A stretch of 64,000 nucleotides of DNA from a virus (taxonomy: Duplodnaviria; Caudoviricetes), in the IMG/VR virus record IMGVR_UViG_3300042908_001106, positions 11,494-75,493 of that record; one strand, written 5' to 3'. Below the pieces are notes generated by a model that worked only from the letters and a program-made list of their open reading frames with translations, was not told the DNA's origin and did not search any database. A program made the translations under genes and the position numbers. How positions within the stretch are numbered: the first letter of the stretch is position 1; every line of letters starts with the position of its first letter. Below, one piece after another: positions 45,894 to 58,036 of this stretch.

Positions 45894-46172
45894 ATGAAGA
45901 TTTCAATTTCAGAAGAATTGGATGACATTGGAATGTCCGCCGAAGCGTTCCGAGTTTATTTCAATATTATTTGTTACGTCTCGTGTCACGAGACATTCCC
46001 AACTATTGACCAGATAACGGCGAAATGTTTTTCCAGACGACGCGCTTCTGGAAAAACATTTACAAGACTTGCATTACGCGAGCTAATTAAGCTCGGAATG
46101 GTTAGCGGTGATATCGAAACGGAAAACTACAGCCTAATACATCCCGATAAGTGGGAAGTGGGGGCGGCATGA
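45894..46172 (+). CDS. Winged-HTH protein
   Basis: ELDD.GMS..AFRVY...FPTI..I...ALRELIKLG. Confidence 0.6.
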   Translation: MKISISEELDDIGMSAEAFRVYFNIICYVSCHETFPTIDQITAKCFSRRRASGKTFTRLALRELIKLGMVSGDIETENYSLIHPDKWEVGAA

Positions 46173-47326
46173 AAAGAGAGCGTCAACAAGGAGGGGATAT
46201 TATCTCAGTCGAGCGTCACAATCGCGACTTTGTGATGATTGATAATTCGGCTGTTCAAGATCCGAATTTAAGCCTTAAAGCCACAGGCTTATTGAGTCTT
46301 TTAATCAGCTATCCGAGCAACTGGAAAATCAGTCTTAGTCACCTTTGCGGTGTCAAGCCAGATGGCAGGGATTCGATATTAAGCGGGTTAGCAGAACTCA
46401 GTCAATCTGGTTATTTACTCTATTTGCGGTGGCGTGACGCAGGGGGTTTGTGGTCTTCTCGATACATAGTTTTTGAGACTCCCCAACTCAAAGAAAAATA
46501 TTTAGAACAAATGCCAAAAGAGGACGTAGAGAAGATTACAGACCCATTTAGTCCATCCAAGGCTAAGGCAAAAAAACAGAAACTTTCACAAGAAACCACA
46601 ACGGAAAATCCACAGTGGAACCATAACGGAAAAACCGTAACGGAAAATCCATCATGGAAAAACCGTAGTGGAGAACCCGATCCAGATAAATACATAGATA
46701 CAAATACAAATCAAAAAAACGTATTAGAAAAGAAAGACCCCCTAACCCCCAACGGGGGAACCGGATGTCTTTCTCAGGAGGGGGAGGGGGAGAACTTGAC
46801 CGGAGGGGGAGAAGAACGCAGCCCCAAACCAGTTGAACCTCCTCAAGCCATACAACAGGGCGCACCTGAACAAAAAAGCATTTTATCCGAGGATCAGATA
46901 TCCGCCGCGCCGACACCAATTTATAGTGTTCACAAAAAGGAACATCAAGCCCGGATCGTTGAGATATACCAATCCAATAAACCTAGCGCCTGGTTGCCCG
47001 TTAACAACCTTCACAGGGATATCAGAGTGATGGTAGATAGTCTTTTATCCTCTGAGAACTTTCAAGGCGATTTAGAGGCATTTTTGACGCGCTTAGAGAA
47101 TGCCTTAAAAGAAATCAACGATCCGACTACTAAGTTTGGCTGGTTCCGTAATCAAGGAAATCTGGGACTGAGAACCCTACTATCCAACTACGGTAGACAT
47201 TTGATGGAATTTAGTGATCGCTGGATGGAACGCCAAACCCCGCAAGTTCGATCCGATGTACTCCCCGATTGGGCATTAGAAGCCCAAAAAGAAATCGAAG
47301 CCCGACAAACCAAAAAGGCAGGTTAA
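46151..47326 (+). CDS. Phage replication initiator (replisome organiser)
   Basis: FVMIDN...D.NLSLKA.GLL..L.S.P..W wHTH; upstream of loader-like and dnaB genes; internal iterons. Confidence 0.75.
   Translation: MGSGGGMKRERQQGGDIISVERHNRDFVMIDNSAVQDPNLSLKATGLLSLLISYPSNWKISLSHLCGVKPDGRDSILSGLAELSQSGYLLYLRWRDAGGLWSSRYIVFETPQLKEKYLEQMPKEDVEKITDPFSPSKAKAKKQKLSQETTTENPQWNHNGKTVTENPSWKNRSGEPDPDKYIDTNTNQKNVLEKKDPLTPNGGTGCLSQEGEGENLTGGGEERSPKPVEPPQAIQQGAPEQKSILSEDQISAAPTPIYSVHKKEHQARIVEIYQSNKPSAWLPVNNLHRDIRVMVDSLLSSENFQGDLEAFLTRLENALKEINDPTTKFGWFRNQGNLGLRTLLSNYGRHLMEFSDRWMERQTPQVRSDVLPDWALEAQKEIEARQTKKAG
46596..46735. repeat. Iteron cluster plus A-rich tract, putative replication origin
   Basis: About five ACGGAAAA(A/T)CC-like units at ~14-bp spacing followed by an A-rich segment. 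Confidence 0.6.
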
Positions 47327-51976: not shown

Positions 51977-52678
51977 ATGAAAAACTCCACAACCACTGCC
52001 GCTCAACTTTCTAAAAGAATCGCTCAACTAAATAGCTTGATTAGCAAGTTCCCCCGCGTCCGAAGCCTAATTCGGAAGTGGGCTTTTGAATTGACTGTTT
52101 TAGAGGGGCGGTTAGAAGCCCTGAAAGCGGTGGCGGTTGTGGAGACACCGAGGCAATTAACAATTTGGGATATGCCAGGACAAAAAATTGACTGGTTTTT
52201 TCCTCCCCTTGTGGGGTCGGAAAAGCAAATTCAGTGGGCGGATAAACTCCGCCGTGATTTTGCTAAATATTATTCATCTCTGGGTGGCGAACCTGGAGAG
52301 GGCGAAATCAAAATCAAGAAAGCGGTAGGGATTGCAGTTTCAGCTAAATTCTGGATCGAAAACCGGGACTACTGTGAGCAAATATCCTGGGAAAATATGA
52401 CCCAGGTTTTGAAGAAATTGGCTGCCTTGGTTGGGATTTGCCAACCTTGGTATAACGACTTGGATCAATCAGAATTTGAGGAAATTCTAAAAGCTAAAAA
52501 ATCAATTCTCAGAAACCTGAGAATTGACAAAGCAGGCATTGTTGCCTGTTGCAATCAGCAGAGTCAAAACAGGGCCGTAGAAATGCGGCCAGAAATTGAG
52601 AGACAAGAAAAAATCCGTGCAAAAGCGGAGGAAAGAATTTTTCGGGAATGGGAACTTAATCAAAGATCCCCGATTTAA
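51977..52678 (+). CDS. Hypothetical phage protein
   Basis: LVGSEKQIQWA..LR and AKFWIENR motifs; TTGACA promoter at 51903. Confidence 0.6.
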   Translation: MKNSTTTAAQLSKRIAQLNSLISKFPRVRSLIRKWAFELTVLEGRLEALKAVAVVETPRQLTIWDMPGQKIDWFFPPLVGSEKQIQWADKLRRDFAKYYSSLGGEPGEGEIKIKKAVGIAVSAKFWIENRDYCEQISWENMTQVLKKLAALVGICQPWYNDLDQSEFEEILKAKKSILRNLRIDKAGIVACCNQQSQNRAVEMRPEIERQEKIRAKAEERIFREWELNQRSPI

Positions 52679-52724: not shown

Positions 52725-53030
52725 TTGGCGAGATGTCTAATGAATAAAAAATTAGTTGATTTGATCAAAATTTTACCTAGCCCCAAGGCTGCTTGGTTGG
52801 CTTTAGAAATGGGATTGCTAAATGATTCGGATGATAAATTTATTTTAGGGGGCGCGATATTAGAAACCGTCCCCGAAAACAAGCGAGGCAATCCTAAAAT
52901 CATTTCTGCGATATATGAAATCGCAGAGATAGCCTTAGAGCGTTATCAAAGCATTTACAAAGGATTGCCCTCAGAATGGAACAATCATCGCCTACAAGTC
53001 AGAAAGTCAGTTTTTGGATGGTTATTATGA
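52725..53030 (+). CDS. Hypothetical protein
   Basis: ORF in the + run; start uncertain. Confidence 0.45.
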   Translation: MARCLMNKKLVDLIKILPSPKAAWLALEMGLLNDSDDKFILGGAILETVPENKRGNPKIISAIYEIAEIALERYQSIYKGLPSEWNNHRLQVRKSVFGWLL

Positions 53031-53311
53031 CTCAAAAACTTTTACACGCCCGTTACTGGAAGGCGGACGGTACCGGAGAAAACCGAACCTCCTACGACCC
53101 CCACGGATTCGGGTTAAAAACCCTAGAAACTATGGATGCCCTGATCAATGGCTTAGGCTTAAAACAAGTTGAGGGAGTGTCTTTGAATGGGGCTCTTGTC
53201 AATCATCACAAAGCCAAGCTCGCAGATATTGGGCATCAGGTTCATGTCGCGGCAACCGCCGAACAGTGGGAAGCTGCGAAAAAATATTGGGAATCAGGAG
53301 CTTTTGATTGA
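53027..53311 (+). CDS. Hypothetical protein
   Basis: ATGA-coupled start MTQKLL. Confidence 0.5.
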   Translation: MTQKLLHARYWKADGTGENRTSYDPHGFGLKTLETMDALINGLGLKQVEGVSLNGALVNHHKAKLADIGHQVHVAATAEQWEAAKKYWESGAFD

Positions 53312-53386
53312 TCAATAATTGAGATCCCAACAACTAAAAACCCCAAAAACCCCACGATATAAGGGTTTAACTATATCAAGAATACC

Positions 53387-53428
53387 TTGGGGTGGTAGGG
53401 GTCGCAGGTTCAAATCCTGTCGCTCCGA
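53387..53428 (+). other. attP core: 3' half of tRNA-Pro(GGG)
   Basis: TTGGGGT anticodon loop through GGTTCAAATCC T-arm to CTCCGA; no 5' half; about 120 bp upstream of the integrase. Confidence 0.85.
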
Positions 53429-53435
53429 TAGACGC

Positions 53436-53493: not shown

Positions 53494-53530
53494 ATTAGAC
53501 AAGATTAGACAAAATTAGACAAGATTAGAC
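53494..53530. repeat. Four tandem 10-bp repeats, putative integrase arm-type sites
   Basis: ATTAGAC(AAG) four times between attP core and integrase. Confidence 0.7.
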
Positions 53531-53549
53531 TGATTATTGATCATCAATT

Positions 53550-54686
53550 GTGACTCAGAAGAAAGCACCCAAAGGAAGCGTACAGGTCAAAACTACCATC
53601 AGTTCTGCGGGGGTGGGGTGGCTCCGGTTGGTTTGGTCGTATCAGGGCAAAAGATATTTTTTGAGCTTAGGATTGGAGGATAATCCCCTAAATCAGATGG
53701 TGGCACAACGGTTGGCTTTACAAATTCAAGGGGACTGCGCCACGGGAAACTTCGATAGCTCCTTGATTAAATACAAACCGCAATTAGCCCGACAATTGAA
53801 ACCCGTCACGGTTTCAGTTGTCGGGCTAATTGAGCAATATTTAATTTTCAAACAGCAACAAATTGAATCAGAAACGCTTTATAAATACAATCATTTCTTG
53901 CCCAGGATTAAACAATATTTTGGTAATGATAGCCTGACTGAAAAATCCGCTTTTGGCTTTCGTGATTGGCTGCTACAACACAACGAACCCGCCACAGTTA
54001 GGGAAAGAATTGTATTCTTAAATGCTGTTTACGAGTGGGGGATTAAGCGTCAATTAGTCGAGAATAATCCCTGGACTGAAGTATCGGTCAAGGTTCCGCC
54101 AAAACGACGGTTAAAGCCATTTTCAATTGAGGAAATAAAACGGATTTTAGAAGGGTTTGCAACGGATCAATATTATTCCCATTATCTCCCTTATGTTGAG
54201 TTTTTACTGGGTACAGGTTGCCGCCCGGGTGAAGCAAACGGGCTCCAGTGGAAACATTTCTCAGAAGATTGTGGAGAGGTTCTAATAGCCTGTAAATTAA
54301 CGGTATCCGGTGAGCGGAAATCGACTAAAACTAATCGCGATCGCTTAATCCCCCTACCCTCACGCCTTCAAAATATTCTCAAAGCAATCCGTCCGATTGA
54401 CCCCGACCCTGAAGCTCCGGTTTTTGTCTCCTTGACTGGATTGCCAATTGATTCCCACAACTTCAGGAATCGGGCTTGGAAACAGGTTTTAGCTAAGGTT
54501 GGTGTGGAATATAGAAAGCCCGGAAACTGCCGTCATACTCTGATTTCTCATGGGTTATCGCAAGGGAAAAGCCCTGCTGAAATGGCAGAACTCGCAGGGA
54601 ATAGAATTGAGACTATTTACAATAATTATGCTGGGAGCGTGATTCATCGGCCCTCACTACCTGAATTATTCCCAGATGACGAATAA
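53550..54686 (+). CDS. int: Tyrosine recombinase/integrase with arm-binding N-terminus
   Basis: TGCRPGE (R), KT (K), CRHT, NNY (Tyr); N-terminal arm-binding domain. Confidence 0.9.
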   Translation: MTQKKAPKGSVQVKTTISSAGVGWLRLVWSYQGKRYFLSLGLEDNPLNQMVAQRLALQIQGDCATGNFDSSLIKYKPQLARQLKPVTVSVVGLIEQYLIFKQQQIESETLYKYNHFLPRIKQYFGNDSLTEKSAFGFRDWLLQHNEPATVRERIVFLNAVYEWGIKRQLVENNPWTEVSVKVPPKRRLKPFSIEEIKRILEGFATDQYYSHYLPYVEFLLGTGCRPGEANGLQWKHFSEDCGEVLIACKLTVSGERKSTKTNRDRLIPLPSRLQNILKAIRPIDPDPEAPVFVSLTGLPIDSHNFRNRAWKQVLAKVGVEYRKPGNCRHTLISHGLSQGKSPAEMAELAGNRIETIYNNYAGSVIHRPSLPELFPDDE

Positions 54687-54736
54687 ATTCCATAATCTGT
54701 TATAAACTGGGGAATAGTTATATAGGATATTTTTTT

Positions 54737-54925
54737 ATGAGACCCCACGAACACAGGCAAGAAATCAAAGCCAGACTCAAGCCAGAAGATAGAGAAAGGC
54801 TTAAAACCCTAGTTGTAGGCATGGGCTATCGGTACTGGAGACAGGAATCTCCAGAACCCGCATGGACAGAGTTTTTGGAGGCGATCGCAACGGGCGATAT
54901 AATTCTTTACAAAAAAGTTGAATAA
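54737..54925 (+). CDS. Small RHH-like protein
   Basis: IKARLKPEDRERLK pattern. Confidence 0.5.
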   Translation: MRPHEHRQEIKARLKPEDRERLKTLVVGMGYRYWRQESPEPAWTEFLEAIATGDIILYKKVE

Positions 54926-54998
54926 GGAGGTTGACATTTTTAGATAACTGGGGTACAACTATAAGTGTAGAAGGTTATAAGCCTAGGAGACAGTTTAA

Positions 54999-55229
54999 AT
55001 GTCAATTGAAACGAATCAAGTCTTAAAGTTAAAATTCGGGTGTTTACTTGGGGATAGAGTTAAATTATCCCCAAGTGATACCAAATGGGGAACGGGGATT
55101 GTAAATGGGTACATTCCCCCTTGTGAGGAGGACGAGCGAGATTATGTTTCAATCGATTTTGAAGACATGGAAAGCCACGATCATCAAGAGAATTTATGGC
55201 TTGTATCGGGAGAATTTACTCTGATTTAG
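54999..55229 (+). CDS. Small acidic protein
   Basis: TTGACA at 54931; AGGAG RBS. Confidence 0.55.
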   Translation: MSIETNQVLKLKFGCLLGDRVKLSPSDTKWGTGIVNGYIPPCEEDERDYVSIDFEDMESHDHQENLWLVSGEFTLI

Positions 55230-55235
55230 TTATAT

Positions 55236-55272
55236 GTTTCAATCCCTGATAGGGATTATAGCTGATTTCACC
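55236..55272 (-). CRISPR. Solitary CRISPR repeat unit (no array)
   Basis: 37 nt GGTGAAATCAGCTATAATCCCTATCAGGGATTGAAAC with an AATCCCT/AGGGATT stem and ATTGAAAC end; single copy. Confidence 0.7.
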
Positions 55273-55409
55273 CCCGACTATCTGGATTTCAAGGCAAAAA
55301 CAATCGCAATGAAACAAGAGTATTTGAATGGTTTAGCAGCGTAAAAGTTAACCGAGTAAGGTTACAGCCCCTACTCGGTTGCAAGTCAATCATTTTCAAG
55401 GAGTATATC

Positions 55410-55751
55410 ATGAAAGTTAAAGTCTATTTCAATCTCCACAAAAAGATGTTTTCGGTAGTCGCGCTTGAAGGTGAAAACAAGGGGCGGGTCATAGCACACC
55501 AAACAGAGGTTAAGTTAATAGATGCACAGTTTAAGGTTTCTGAAGCCGGACGGCAACGGGTGATCCAACAAAAGCGAAAAAATGTCCATGCTTGCGTTGT
55601 AGGAACATTGACTGACACAGTGAAAAACTGTGATCAAGCCGTTACTTACAACCCCTACAAATACAACTCATTCATCCTAAAAAAGGATGAATCTCCCGTT
55701 AACACGGCTCAAAGCGTTCTGCTAATCAACAAACAAATTTTTATCAACTAA
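55410..55751 (+). CDS. Conserved phage hypothetical protein
   Basis: VYFNLHK..FSV, RQRV....RKNVHA and YNPYK motifs. Confidence 0.7.
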   Translation: MKVKVYFNLHKKMFSVVALEGENKGRVIAHQTEVKLIDAQFKVSEAGRQRVIQQKRKNVHACVVGTLTDTVKNCDQAVTYNPYKYNSFILKKDESPVNTAQSVLLINKQIFIN

Positions 55752-55767
55752 ATAGGAGAGAGTTAGT

Positions 55768-56106
55768 ATGTGGCTAGAACACTTAAAACCCGGTGACAAG
55801 GTACTTGTAAGAAGTCGCTACTTTTCACAAGATCAAATTGAAACAGTTAAATCATGTGGGAAAAAGTTTATTTCCCTGGAAGGATGGGAAGATAAAACAC
55901 GGTTTCATGTTGCCAATGGGTGCGGTGTCAAAAGAGAATACCCAAACTCTTATCAGCTATTCCCTGCAACCAAGGAAACTCTTGAAGAAATTGAAAACCA
56001 GAAAACTAAAATACAATTGGCGAGAAAACTTGAAGCCACTGATTTTAGAAAGCTACCTTTAGGCGTTTTAAAACAAATAGCTGAAGTTATAGATGGTGTT
56101 GATTAG
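55768..56106 (+). CDS. Hypothetical protein
   Basis: AGGAG RBS; LKPGDKV. Confidence 0.6.
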   Translation: MWLEHLKPGDKVLVRSRYFSQDQIETVKSCGKKFISLEGWEDKTRFHVANGCGVKREYPNSYQLFPATKETLEEIENQKTKIQLARKLEATDFRKLPLGVLKQIAEVIDGVD

Positions 56107-56123
56107 TTTAAGCCGAGATTATT

Positions 56124-56156
56124 AAAAACCAGGGAATATTTAACCCCTGGTTTTTT
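56124..56156. terminator. Bidirectional terminator
   Basis: AAAAACCAGGG...CCCTGGTTTTT. Confidence 0.7.
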
Positions 56157-56190
56157 CTGTCCAAATTTTAATCAGTACATTCTCATCCTA

Positions 56191-56790
56191 TCACCCAGCC
56201 ACAGGGACAGGAATAATCCCCATCAGAATGCCAGATATTTCCTGAGTTATTTGCGTAGTTGTTCGCTTAGCGTCAATCACAATCCAGTTATTTTGCCTAG
56301 CCGCCAATTCCAGATATCCAAACCGAACCCGATCTAAAAAAAGCAAGTCTCTTTCAATCTTGTCCAGAGGTTTGTCGAGATCGCGGCGCACCGCCACCTC
56401 AACAGGACAATCAAACAAAATCACCATATCAGGATCAATTCCCCCCGTCGCCTCGTGATTTAGCTTCCTTAAATTATCTAAATTAAGTCCGTGTCCATAG
56501 CCTTGATAGGCAAGCGTTGAATCCGTGTATCGATCACACAATACCAAATCAGAATCTTCTAACAAATATTTAATCGTGGGATTGTGTTTAATCCTGTCCT
56601 TCAGGATTAATTTAAGCTGCTGCTCCGGCGTTAAACACCCATTCTTTAATTCAAAACGAACGTCATAATCACAGGGTTCTCTTGTGATGTAAAATTTTAA
56701 CTTTAACGCCGTGAAATGGTCGCAAAGTTTTCTGATTTGGGTTGTTTTCCCACTGCGGTCAATTCCTTCAAAAGCAATCAATTTACTCAT
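56191..56790 (-). CDS. tmk: Thymidylate kinase
   Basis: FEGIDRSGKTTQ, TREP, CDRYTDSTLAYQG; ATG at 56790. Confidence 0.92.
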   Translation of the reverse strand: MSKLIAFEGIDRSGKTTQIRKLCDHFTALKLKFYITREPCDYDVRFELKNGCLTPEQQLKLILKDRIKHNPTIKYLLEDSDLVLCDRYTDSTLAYQGYGHGLNLDNLRKLNHEATGGIDPDMVILFDCPVEVAVRRDLDKPLDKIERDLLFLDRVRFGYLELAARQNNWIVIDAKRTTTQITQEISGILMGIIPVPVAG

Positions 56791-56951
56791 TTCATCCTCA
56801 TCCAATTTTTAATCAAATCATCTTTAATCATACTCTGTTTTACTAATTCAATAATATGCTCCTTAGCTTGTTCCAAAGTTAGATTGTCAAGATTTCGCCT
56901 GATTACTGCGAGTTGGAATTCTTGCTCGGTTGTTAGTTGTATGGGTTGCAT
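56787..56951 (-). CDS. nblA: Phycobilisome degradation protein NblA homologue (54 aa, not in ORF track)
   Basis: MQPIQLTTEQEFQL...LTLEQAKEHIIELVKQSMIKD matches NblA L(S/T).EQ.F...EQA..L..L..Q.M.(K/R); AGGAG RBS; ATGA-coupled to tmk. Confidence 0.8.
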   Translation of the reverse strand: MQPIQLTTEQEFQLAVIRRNLDNLTLEQAKEHIIELVKQSMIKDDLIKNWMRMK

Positions 56952-57054
56952 TTCCTAGCTCCTTTGATTGGTTGGTTATGGACTATATTACATCTGGACA
57001 TCGCAATACTATAGAGAGTTGATTCTATATATAGATTATACCCAGAAATAGTTG

Positions 57055-57106
57055 TTTTGTATCCCCCTGATACAAAATCAAAAATAGTTTGTTTTACCTG
57101 TTGACA
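57055..57106 (+). promoter_or_regulatory. Palindromic operator plus -35 box (copy 1)
   Basis: TTTTGTATC-CCCCT-GATACAAAA...; TTGACA 14 nt after the shared block. Confidence 0.7.
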
Positions 57107-57177
57107 CCTGTTGATATTTTGTGTAGTATTGGAAAAGTAGACAGCAACAACCAACACGCATTTAAGGGGCAAACGCC

Positions 57178-57975
57178 ATGACAACCACAACTAAAACCGC
57201 CAAAGCTCCAAAAACCCCTGAGTGGAAATGGAACAAAAGTATCAGTCGTGATGCCTTAACCCTGCCCCAAGAAGGCTTTTTCGTTGATGATAGAGGCAAC
57301 GTCTGGAAAGATAATGGCGACTCCATTGGTAACGTCACCCCGTTACCAAACACCCTTAAGGTGACACCCCTAGAATGGGTTGTCACCCACGAACAAAAAC
57401 AGGAAGCCGTTTCCTGTAAAAAACTGCACGGTAGCTACCAAAAAACCGCGACTCCCGCCCGTCGCAAAGAATCCCCTGATGGGATGCGGGGAGGCAATTC
57501 TCAATGGGGCGAAGTCTCCGGCCCCAAAGCTCACTTTGTGGCTGATGAGTACCAAGTAAGTGTCACCTACTCGGTAACTAAAGCCGTAAATCAATTTGGG
57601 GAAATGATAGAGGGAAAACCCAAATTTCCTTCCCCCACGGCCATTGCCTATGAAACGGGCTATGGGGAAATCACGGAATATACTGTGGCGGATTTGGCAG
57701 TCTTAGACTTGCCTACCGAAAAAGTGGAGAAGGTCTACACTCCCCAACGGGAGCATTTTTACACAGAAGCAATCAAGGTTATTGAAAAATACCTGGAGGA
57801 TTTAAATAAACCCTCGACGGGTTTATTGAAAGTCGGGGACATTATCAATCACCCTGTCTATGGACAGGGAACTGTCACAAAAGCCTTTGGGACTAAAAAC
57901 CCGCTGTATCAATCCGTTTGTGCGGATTTTCCATGCGGAAACAAGATGACAGCAAAGTGCGATCTTGTTGACTAA
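57178..57975 (+). CDS. Hypothetical protein
   Basis: 265 aa; C-terminal VGDIINHPVYGQGTV SH3-like motif. Confidence 0.65.
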   Translation: MTTTTKTAKAPKTPEWKWNKSISRDALTLPQEGFFVDDRGNVWKDNGDSIGNVTPLPNTLKVTPLEWVVTHEQKQEAVSCKKLHGSYQKTATPARRKESPDGMRGGNSQWGEVSGPKAHFVADEYQVSVTYSVTKAVNQFGEMIEGKPKFPSPTAIAYETGYGEITEYTVADLAVLDLPTEKVEKVYTPQREHFYTEAIKVIEKYLEDLNKPSTGLLKVGDIINHPVYGQGTVTKAFGTKNPLYQSVCADFPCGNKMTAKCDLVD

Positions 57976-57979
57976 GACA

Positions 57980-58036
57980 GCGACCGCAGGCCCCTGACTG
58001 GGTTCGATTCCCAGTGGTCGCATTCCCGAAAGGGAT
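57980..58036 (+). ncRNA. tRNA-like minihelix (acceptor stem plus T-arm) and GNRA hairpin
   Basis: GCGACCG/TGGTCGC 7 bp, CTGGG-TTCGATT-CCCAG, discriminator A, then TCCC-GAAA-GGGA. Confidence 0.5.

Follow-up and report, generated by a model that had tools for sequence, protein, structure and literature searches.

A 64,000-nucleotide (nt) stretch of a viral record in IMG/VR (IMGVR_UViG_3300042908_001106), hereafter the window, carries a single repeat unit of the type found in host arrays of short palindromic repeats that are clustered and regularly interspaced (CRISPR). The window covers bases 11494-75493 of a 75,493-base record that is estimated to be 78% complete, and the repeat lies at window positions 55236-55272, between the end of a small open reading frame (ORF), ORF76, and a 72-nt tail. 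The plus strand reads GTTTCAATCCCTGATAGGGATTATAGCTGATTTCACC at these positions; the 37-nt unit itself is the reverse complement, on the minus strand, and in the sense of a CRISPR RNA (crRNA) it reads GGTGAAATCAGCTATAATCCCTATCAGGGATTGAAAC.

An earlier note on this DNA, made from its letters alone, had described one 37-nt minus-strand CRISPR repeat without a second copy and without cas genes, and our searches bear this out. Across the 64-kb window, the Rfam family CRISPR-DR5 (RF01318) matches the minus strand over its full model (1-37 of 37) with 43.8 bits against a gathering cut-off of 40 (E = 0.001, or 4.9e-5 when the search space is 3 kb), and it is the sole Rfam family to exceed its gathering score anywhere in the window. 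A 22-nt core of the repeat, with up to 3 mismatches allowed, has one site in the window and none in 100 shuffled sequences, and the same core occurs a single time in the entire 75,493-base record. No degenerate second repeat is found within 300 nt on either side, where local alignments score 16-18 and are equalled by 75-153 of 300 shuffles. An array is defined by at least two repeats with spacers, and the phage unit, at one copy, falls short of this. As for cas genes, cas6 (TIGR01877), csc2 (TIGR03157) and cas1 (TIGR00287), the three families searched, are not found in the record.

The repeat matches the DR5 consensus structure: a stem of 7 bp and a 3-nt loop precede the 3' end ATTGAAAC. Since AATCCCT/AGGGATT, the sequence of the stem, is perfectly palindromic, an identical 7-bp stem forms on either strand, with predicted energies of -8.6 kcal/mol for the minus strand and -9.6 kcal/mol for the plus strand. 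The plus strand also scores 23.1 bits against another Rfam repeat family, below that family's cut-off of 37.

That such a unit could be a chance resemblance, or a chimera of phage and host array made during assembly, is scarcely credible. Assemblers do carry a general risk of joining sequences via shared words, and such joins seem to be present nearby, at 55398 and 55438, with another host repeat. The full-length match above the Rfam cut-off and the empty set of 100 shuffles nevertheless speak against chance, and the joints on both sides of the repeat are identical in four separately listed contigs (the window record, L003, L233 and L234). They recur with no differences in contigs of two further runs, both RNA libraries, which cross 55170-55301 and 55173-55370. 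The joint at the repeat is not an assembly artefact.

A repeat at a joint within a variable cargo slot

To place the repeat in its genomic context we collected 15 close relatives (L129-L143) via the gp82-like gene that follows it, at 85-90% protein identity. Comparison with these relatives indicates that the repeat lies in a hypervariable cargo slot between an early promoter-like site and a conserved hairpin. The left border is a plus-strand site at 54931-54959 (TTGACA, 17 nt, TACAAC; TACAGT in relatives) that is conserved in L129-L143, and that a consensus scan missed because its second hexamer ends in C here. The slot is empty in 12 of the 15 relatives (L131, L132, L134-L143) and holds an unrelated cargo gene of about 75 codons in L129, L130 and L133, while the same slot in the Planktothrix phage PaV-LD contains a gene annotated as 3'-phosphoadenosine-5'-phosphosulfate (PAPS) reductase. 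Set against the relatives with an empty slot, the window has a 366-nt plus-strand insert at 54977-55342, made up of ORF76 with its own ribosome-binding site, 6 bases, the repeat and the 72-nt tail. The earlier note had proposed a search for the repeat in related phages; a CRISPR-DR match is present in 0 of the 15 close relatives, and none is present in the PaV-LD region. Two further contigs, L233 and L234, carry an identical cassette with the repeat, but have another gene after the hairpin, so the cassette has been held together through at least one mosaic exchange.

On its right, the slot is bordered by a conserved hairpin at 55349-55381, which the earlier note had placed at 55350-55380, and which stands just before the gp82-like gene. 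Its minus-strand form, 12 bp followed by AACUUUUA, is the stronger one, at -19.6 kcal/mol (z -4.38) against -15.4 kcal/mol (z -3.45) for the plus strand. Among the relatives its arms are of two types, CCGAG/CTCGG and GCAAG/CTTGC, which amount to two compensatory pairs, and L131 has a hybrid of the two. A U-run follows the minus-strand form, yet no minus-strand gene lies just upstream. Candidate roles for the hairpin are those of a terminator, a 5' untranslated region (5' UTR) element or a recombination site.

ORF76 (54999-55229, plus strand) encodes a 76-amino-acid acidic protein with an isoelectric point of 4.34, and ends in a stop codon 6 nt ahead of the repeat. In the earlier description of the neighbours as small acidic and ribbon-helix-helix genes, the first half is right; the second is not confirmed, as the 62-amino-acid ORF at 54737-54925 (plus strand) matches no Pfam or PHROG family at E <= 0.01. 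ORF76 likewise has no Pfam or PHROG family. An Atlas model of the protein resembles Tudor/SH3 domains (template modelling score about 0.6), and an AlphaFold2 model built from 3 sequences is of low confidence (mean predicted local distance difference test score 59.8). We considered that the repeat might interrupt a longer gene, since a 37-nt deletion aligns the frames of ORF76 and the tail; this is ruled out by homologues of 74 and 86 amino acids that terminate at the same place as ORF76, which must therefore be complete rather than split by the repeat.

Copies of ORF76 without the repeat occur elsewhere. In L235, a copy of 86% identity lies on the opposite side of the integrase module, between homologues of the window's genes at 51977-52678 and 52976-53311, and in L236 a copy of 76% identity is followed by a terminator-like hairpin; neither is accompanied by the repeat. 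ORF76 is thus a mobile gene that occupies different slots in related phages. To the left of the integrase is a second variable slot, and it is this one that holds the ORF76 homologue of L235. Among viral contigs in IMG/VR, a search for ORF76 relatives matched the same phage alone.

Nucleotide homology between the window and L235 extends through ...CTGATTYAGTTAT and ends 1-3 nt short of the repeat edge. On the far side, the tail (55273-55344, plus strand) is the remainder of a 36-codon ORF from the ATG at 55234, an ORF that the earlier note had pointed out and that does exist, and this tail is seen only alongside the repeat. In a relative from run X12, the last 17 nt of the tail (55328-55344, with one difference) are joined directly behind position 54966, shortly after the promoter-like site, and both ORF76 and the repeat are missing. 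Because this relative has the end of the tail without the repeat, we read the tail as the leftover of an earlier cargo gene, probably its 3' remnant, in keeping with the suspicion voiced in the earlier note; alternatively, it could be the leader of an RNA that carries the repeat in sense. The 3' pattern of the tail is found in viral contigs in L003 only, and no ancestor with an intact gene in the tail's place was found there. The repeat thus lies exactly at the joint between two unrelated pieces, in an array-like register in which phage sequence takes the place of a spacer at its 3' end.

A 12-nt direct repeat, TATGTTTCAATC, is present at 55143-55154, inside ORF76, and at 55233-55244, at the joint, with no third copy in the window. 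On the plus strand, its second copy takes in the initial 9 nt of the CRISPR repeat, and that 9-mer alone occurs five times in the window, counting both strands. This direct repeat may be microhomology used in the capture of the repeat, or chance.

Host-family arrays with closely similar repeats, one of which targets the phage

The 22-nt core is widespread in filamentous cyanobacteria, with at least 120 stretches in a genome scan, and of 80 record titles listed nearly all refer to cyanobacteria; the assignment of the 3' portion to the 37-nt repeat family of these organisms, made in the earlier note, is thus upheld. Among the matches listed for this core, none shares the 5' part of the phage unit, and the nearest differs at 3 of 15 positions. 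In a sample of the phylum, 3 of 401 genomes match the repeat with up to 3 mismatches. One of them, G251, a genome of the host's family, contains 109 array repeats that are identical to the phage unit at 36 of 37 positions, the sole difference being at position 2, so that the comparison with host repeats proposed in the earlier note has yielded a near-identical counterpart.

In G251, this repeat makes four arrays with a conserved leader on their GTTG... side and, in two of them, degenerate terminal repeats at the far end. These leaders and terminal repeats fix the crRNA sense as GGTG...GAAAC, which corresponds to the minus strand of the window. One array stands directly behind cas3' (type I-D), cas10d, csc2 and csc1, so that at least this array ties the DR5 repeat family to cas genes of type I-D. 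The operon (L230 537-9375) comprises cas3', two unassigned ORFs, cas10d, csc2 and csc1 and runs straight into the array; among the ORFs scanned, no cas6, cas4, cas1 or cas2 lies between the two. The three remaining arrays are orphans without cas neighbours, and have their leader in common.

Within the family to which G251 belongs, 11 of 144 genomes hold the repeat with up to 3 mismatches. Two of them, G002 and G511, have arrays that match the phage unit at 34-35 of 37 positions and also carry an exact copy of the phage's attachment (att) core, described below. Their variant, GTTGAAATAACCTAT..., has mismatches at positions 2, 9 and 11, and a second G002 variant differs in the stem too. Mismatches to the G251 repeat and to the GTTGAAATAACCTAT... 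variant are confined to the 5' third and spare both the stem and the 8-nt handle. Two other genomes, G503 and G508, each have one chromosomal copy (35 and 34 of 37 positions identical to the phage unit). In G503, the solitary repeat (L245 7949-7985) is followed by a (TAATTCG)n trailer that resembles the trailers of the G251 arrays, and G508 has a syntenic copy (L246); both single copies are collapsed arrays. Loose ends at window position 55270 in runs X15 and X17 derive from this G503 host locus, which shows that the collapsed-array locus is present in those RNA libraries. The repeats published for Lake Erie isolates of Planktothrix agardhii (types I-D, III-B/A and III-D) are all unlike the phage unit, which implies that only some lineages of the host group use this repeat.

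Arrays of this kind do encounter the phage family at issue. In G002, a DR5-type array has a spacer that matches window positions 47043-47077 at 32 of 35 positions (L247), the one match to the phage among 194 spacers from 10 loci in 8 genomes. The protospacer lies inside a plus-strand ORF (46151-47326), the spacer has the same sense as the gene, and GTC stands immediately 5' of it; GTN is the protospacer-adjacent motif (PAM) of type I-D systems. Since a spacer of the same sense as the gene cannot pair with its mRNA, the match fits DNA targeting.

No spacer examined accounts for the flanks of the repeat, which the earlier note had proposed to compare with host spacers. None of the 194 spacers matches either flank, and the 106 spacers of G251 have no match to the phage longer than 15 nt. 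A BLAST comparison of the flanks (55140-55235 and 55273-55349) with the 144 family genomes gave chance-level matches only, the best being 25 nt at 92%. The 126 loci from the first repeat scans match the phage at the repeat only, save for L003 and one 18-nt match, and neither flank matches the remaining loci that were compared. Because arrays vary from strain to strain, the missing spacer is weak negative evidence.

Positions 53500-58000 match PaV-LD with 88% identity across 68% of their length, and no other isolated phage matches this region, which makes the phage, on nucleotide similarity, a relative of PaV-LD. The PaV-LD annotations in the matching neighbourhood are integrase, thymidylate kinase and nblA. 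In the window, a tyrosine integrase gene (53550-54686, plus strand; PF00589, PF12167, phrog_1) has a counterpart annotated as integrase in PaV-LD. Upstream of it, a 47-nt stretch at 53383-53429 (plus strand) corresponds to the 3' part of a tRNA gene, and ARAGORN finds no whole tRNA gene in the window. This 47-nt fragment is likely to be the attP-like attachment core of the phage, and it is exact (47 of 47) in G002, G503, G508 and G511. In G503, the type III-B repeat published for P. agardhii occurs 21 times, with 20 exact copies, and we treat this genome as P. agardhii-like on this ground.

Beyond the slot, the first conserved gene is the mycobacteriophage L5 gp82-like gene (55410-55751, plus strand; PF25735, E = 1e-42; phrog_586), followed by a phage gene similar to the ProQ C-terminal region (55768-56106, plus strand; PF24203) and, at 56191-56951 on the minus strand, by a thymidylate kinase gene (PF02223) and a 54-amino-acid ORF where PaV-LD has its annotated nblA (phycobilisome degradation). 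Pieces of the type III-B repeat of P. agardhii directly adjoin the start of the gp82-like gene (55398 and 55438) in contigs of the RNA-library runs X15 and X17. A solitary III-B repeat in phages was considered and rejected: viral contigs contain 0 such stretches, and the 20-mer of this repeat is absent from IMG/VR. Given that absence, the pieces are better read as host spacers against the gp82-like gene that were joined to it by the assembler.

Transcription across the repeat and its possible functions

All neighbouring genes are on the plus strand, and the crRNA sense of the repeat is therefore antisense to the local operon, as the earlier note had stated. A consensus scan found no minus-strand promoter-like site between 55273 and 55889, although a simple sigma-70 scan of this kind can miss cyanophage promoters. 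The best candidate in the tail, picked by eye, is TTTACG-17-TACTCT, with 7 of 12 matches, and a minus-strand promoter-like site at 55242-55213 starts inside the repeat and points away from it. The hairpin at 55349-55381 would stop transcription that enters the repeat in its sense direction. RNA-library contigs of two studies cover the repeat without a difference; these contigs are strandless, and the libraries may hold DNA. The likeliest transcript is an early plus-strand mRNA that carries the repeat in antisense.

These data bear on the possibility that the repeat is a sense-strand RNA anti-CRISPR (Racr), the main rival of the explanation favoured below. A minus-strand transcript that runs from the tail through the repeat might be bound and cut at its hairpin by the host's Cas6, a scenario we regard as unlikely, though one to be taken seriously. 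The resulting RNA of leader and repeat, with a likelihood we put at the same modest level, might tie up Cas6 and Cas7-type subunits in dead-end complexes and so lower type I-D (or type III) interference. Several observations speak for such a decoy: the unit is solitary and on a phage in which cas6, csc2 and cas1, the three families searched, are not found; its sequence and hairpin are near-identical to those of host-family repeats; its neighbour in the variable early slot is a small acidic ORF; and the repeat region is present and identical in contigs of two RNA libraries. The order of a terminator-like hairpin, about 70 nt and then the repeat resembles the layout of RacrIF1 from start site to Cas6f processing site, and Anabaena Cas6 enzymes are described as processing the repeat of cyanophage N-1 and competing for substrates. 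The decoy is harder to reconcile with the lack of a minus-strand promoter-like site within 250 nt upstream (the best by eye being the 7-of-12 candidate), with the confinement of the repeat to one lineage and 0 of 15 close relatives, and with its convergence with the conserved early promoter, which means that it is not co-transcribed with ORF76, unlike the published acr-racr pair. The RNA contigs are strandless and may contain DNA.

A function of the opposite strand has to be weighed as well. In the early mRNA, the complement of the repeat could pair with the repeats of host precursor crRNA, forming a 37-bp duplex with each, and thereby block or misdirect maturation; we hold this to be improbable, and give no better prospects to a variant in which the plus strand offers Cas6 the same AAUCCCU/AGGGAUU palindromic hairpin. 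The plus strand is the strand of the conserved promoter and of all neighbouring genes, the hairpin also forms on it at -9.6 kcal/mol, its complementarity to the G251 repeats is 36 of 37, and a solitary DR5 repeat in another viral contig, L006, is also antisense to its flanking ORFs. Against it, mature crRNAs are protein-bound, so that an antisense RNA would act on new precursor only; a neutral scar would have this orientation in half of all cases; the plus strand falls below the cut-off of the other Rfam family noted above; and the third solitary case, in L002, is co-oriented with its neighbours. Were an anti-repeat in early mRNA to disable crRNA maturation, by pairing or by its palindromic stem, it would represent a mode of RNA anti-CRISPR distinct from the published sense decoys, a proposal we consider a shade more doubtful again; among the 12 of 140 papers listed by a full-text literature search, none describes such a mechanism. 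A further twist is that the bases directly behind ORF76 form an anti-tag (GUUUC...), by which type III complexes would take the adjoining transcript for 'self'.

The least probable of the functional accounts, and a very improbable one, is that the repeat and one flank are processed to a crRNA-like RNA that steers host Cas proteins to a target in the host or in a rival phage. Other viral contigs do carry DR5 mini-arrays (L004 with 2 repeats, L005 with 5, L007 with 2 exact and 2 degenerate ones, and phage N1 with the repeat in 5 places), and viral crRNA-like regulators have been described in a preprint. The unit studied here, though, is a single repeat with no degenerate second copy, its downstream 'spacer' would be the phage's own ORF76 in antisense, and its flanks have no match beyond chance in the 144 host-family genomes (at best the 25 nt at 92%) or in the other loci, although partial seed matches are conceivable.

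A possibly captured host repeat and its known counterparts

The explanation that we favour, tentatively and at slightly less than an even chance, is that the unit is a host DR5 repeat captured by recombination with a host array, which now persists as a junction scar in the early cargo slot. The earlier note had offered a Cas6/Cascade decoy or a scar of recombination as alternatives; the evidence leans towards the scar. We propose that host-family arrays of the DR5 type gain spacers against this phage family, and that during infection phage DNA could recombine with such an array via homology between spacer and protospacer, on one or both sides of a repeat. The product would contain ORF76 to its 3' end, one repeat (...GAAAC and then phage sequence) and the truncated 3' end of a former neighbour gene. 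In such a product the PAM-side flank of the targeted site would be replaced by repeat sequence, so that the exchange may have let the phage escape when it occurred. At present the repeat would be carried passively and transcribed in antisense within the early plus-strand mRNA, presumably with no need for a function of its own.

We favour a scar because of the position of the breakpoint, the orphan far flank, the restriction to one lineage, the antisense orientation and the lack of a predicted sense promoter, and because arrays of this kind contact this phage and tend to collapse. The terminator-like hairpin just upstream of the repeat in its sense direction points the same way. Recombination between staphylococcal phages and CRISPR loci reportedly proceeds via spacer/protospacer homology, and is said to set array sequence beside the phage sequence that matches the spacer; the products are said to carry large parts of the CRISPR locus and to serve its transduction. 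Compared with these products, the joint described here has the same register, with the 3' end of the repeat abutting phage sequence, but it involves a single repeat in a viable phage lineage, and a matching spacer was not found.

Several observations weigh against a scar. Among 300 spacers and 144 genomes, no host spacer matches the 3' end of ORF76 or the tail, and no ancestor was found in which ORF76 is followed by an intact neighbour gene. The repeat is flawless and its stem unbroken, and the cassette has been kept in two mosaic backgrounds and is unchanged in contigs of runs from 2017 and 2023; an intact and persistent cassette suits a useful element as much as a young scar. A distance of 6 nt separates the repeat from a preceding small acidic ORF, and the slot is of the sort that typically holds counter-defence cargo; the arrangement recalls the published acr-racr pair. 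Finally, a GTC at the L235 breakpoint is 2 nt out of register with the present joint; because it is out of register and GTN is common, being expected at 1 site in 16, this detail is weak.

Phages with solitary repeats are already known, and in a few cases the repeat has proved to be an RNA anti-CRISPR; it is not settled by what route these repeats come about or what share of them is debris. The unit itself is unsurprising. Its context is unusually clear, with relatives that have an empty slot or other cargo, copies of ORF76 without the repeat, host arrays matching at 34-36 of 37 positions (one of which targets the phage) and collapsed arrays. This well-resolved context makes both the origin of RNA anti-CRISPRs and the antisense-repeat question directly testable, and provides a good natural example for asking whether the capture of a repeat by phage-array recombination is a birth step of RNA anti-CRISPRs. 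The unit would also be a first candidate of the cyanobacterial, type I-D-linked DR5 family in phages of bloom-forming Planktothrix; should it be no more than a scar, it remains a record of physical exchange of a cyanophage with the CRISPR array of a host. No report of a solitary DR5 repeat in a phage of Planktothrix came up in literature searches, which did not extend to the supplementary list of Racr candidates of PMC10651486.

Both solitary repeat units and Racrs are well documented (PMC10651486; PMC11656645). Like RacrIF1 and RacrIC1 as presented in PMC10651486, the phage unit is a single cas-less phage repeat that mimics a host family, keeps its hairpin intact and has a small ORF as neighbour within an accessory locus. 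Unlike the Racrs described there, for which an upstream promoter was a selection criterion, it has no predicted sense promoter within 250 nt; and unlike RacrIC1, which lies 11 nt behind acrIC5 and is co-transcribed with it, it runs antisense to the operon, the adjacent small ORF included. The family also differs, since the unit belongs to the type I-D-linked DR5 repeats, and 'I-D' appears only in a reference title in the part of PMC10651486 that was accessible. Judged on its sequence features, the phage unit fits the published description of solitary repeats in most respects, the upstream promoter being the point on which it fails.

Closer in repeat family are the host-derived 37-nt DR5 repeats of the Nostoc cyanophage N-1 (PMC4916379; 10.1101/2020.04.14.041012), which share the core AATCCCTATCAGGGATTGAAAC; this core has 24 of 24 identities to the N1 record, in 5 places. 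Host Cas6 enzymes can process the N-1 repeats, according to 10.1101/2020.04.14.041012. N-1 carries five repeats, four spacers and a leader, which together make a working array, whereas the Planktothrix phage has one repeat, no spacer and no leader, and N-1 is unrelated to this relative of PaV-LD. The unit also resembles the virus-borne mini-CRISPR arrays implicated in conflict between viruses (PMC6858448) in that host-type repeats are carried by a virus without cas genes; unlike those mini-arrays, in which at least one spacer against a rival virus lies between two repeats, it has no second repeat. Among five other IMG/VR contigs with the 22-nt core, none of which is close to our phage at the nucleotide level, three carry mini-arrays of 2 to 5 repeats and two carry solitary repeats, at 9908-9944 of L002 (co-oriented with its neighbours) and at 248-284 of L006 (antisense to them). 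The phage unit is like the collapsed arrays of G503 and G508, too, in that recombination has reduced the same repeat family to one copy; those copies are chromosomal, have kept their trailer and stand beside ordinary cellular genes.

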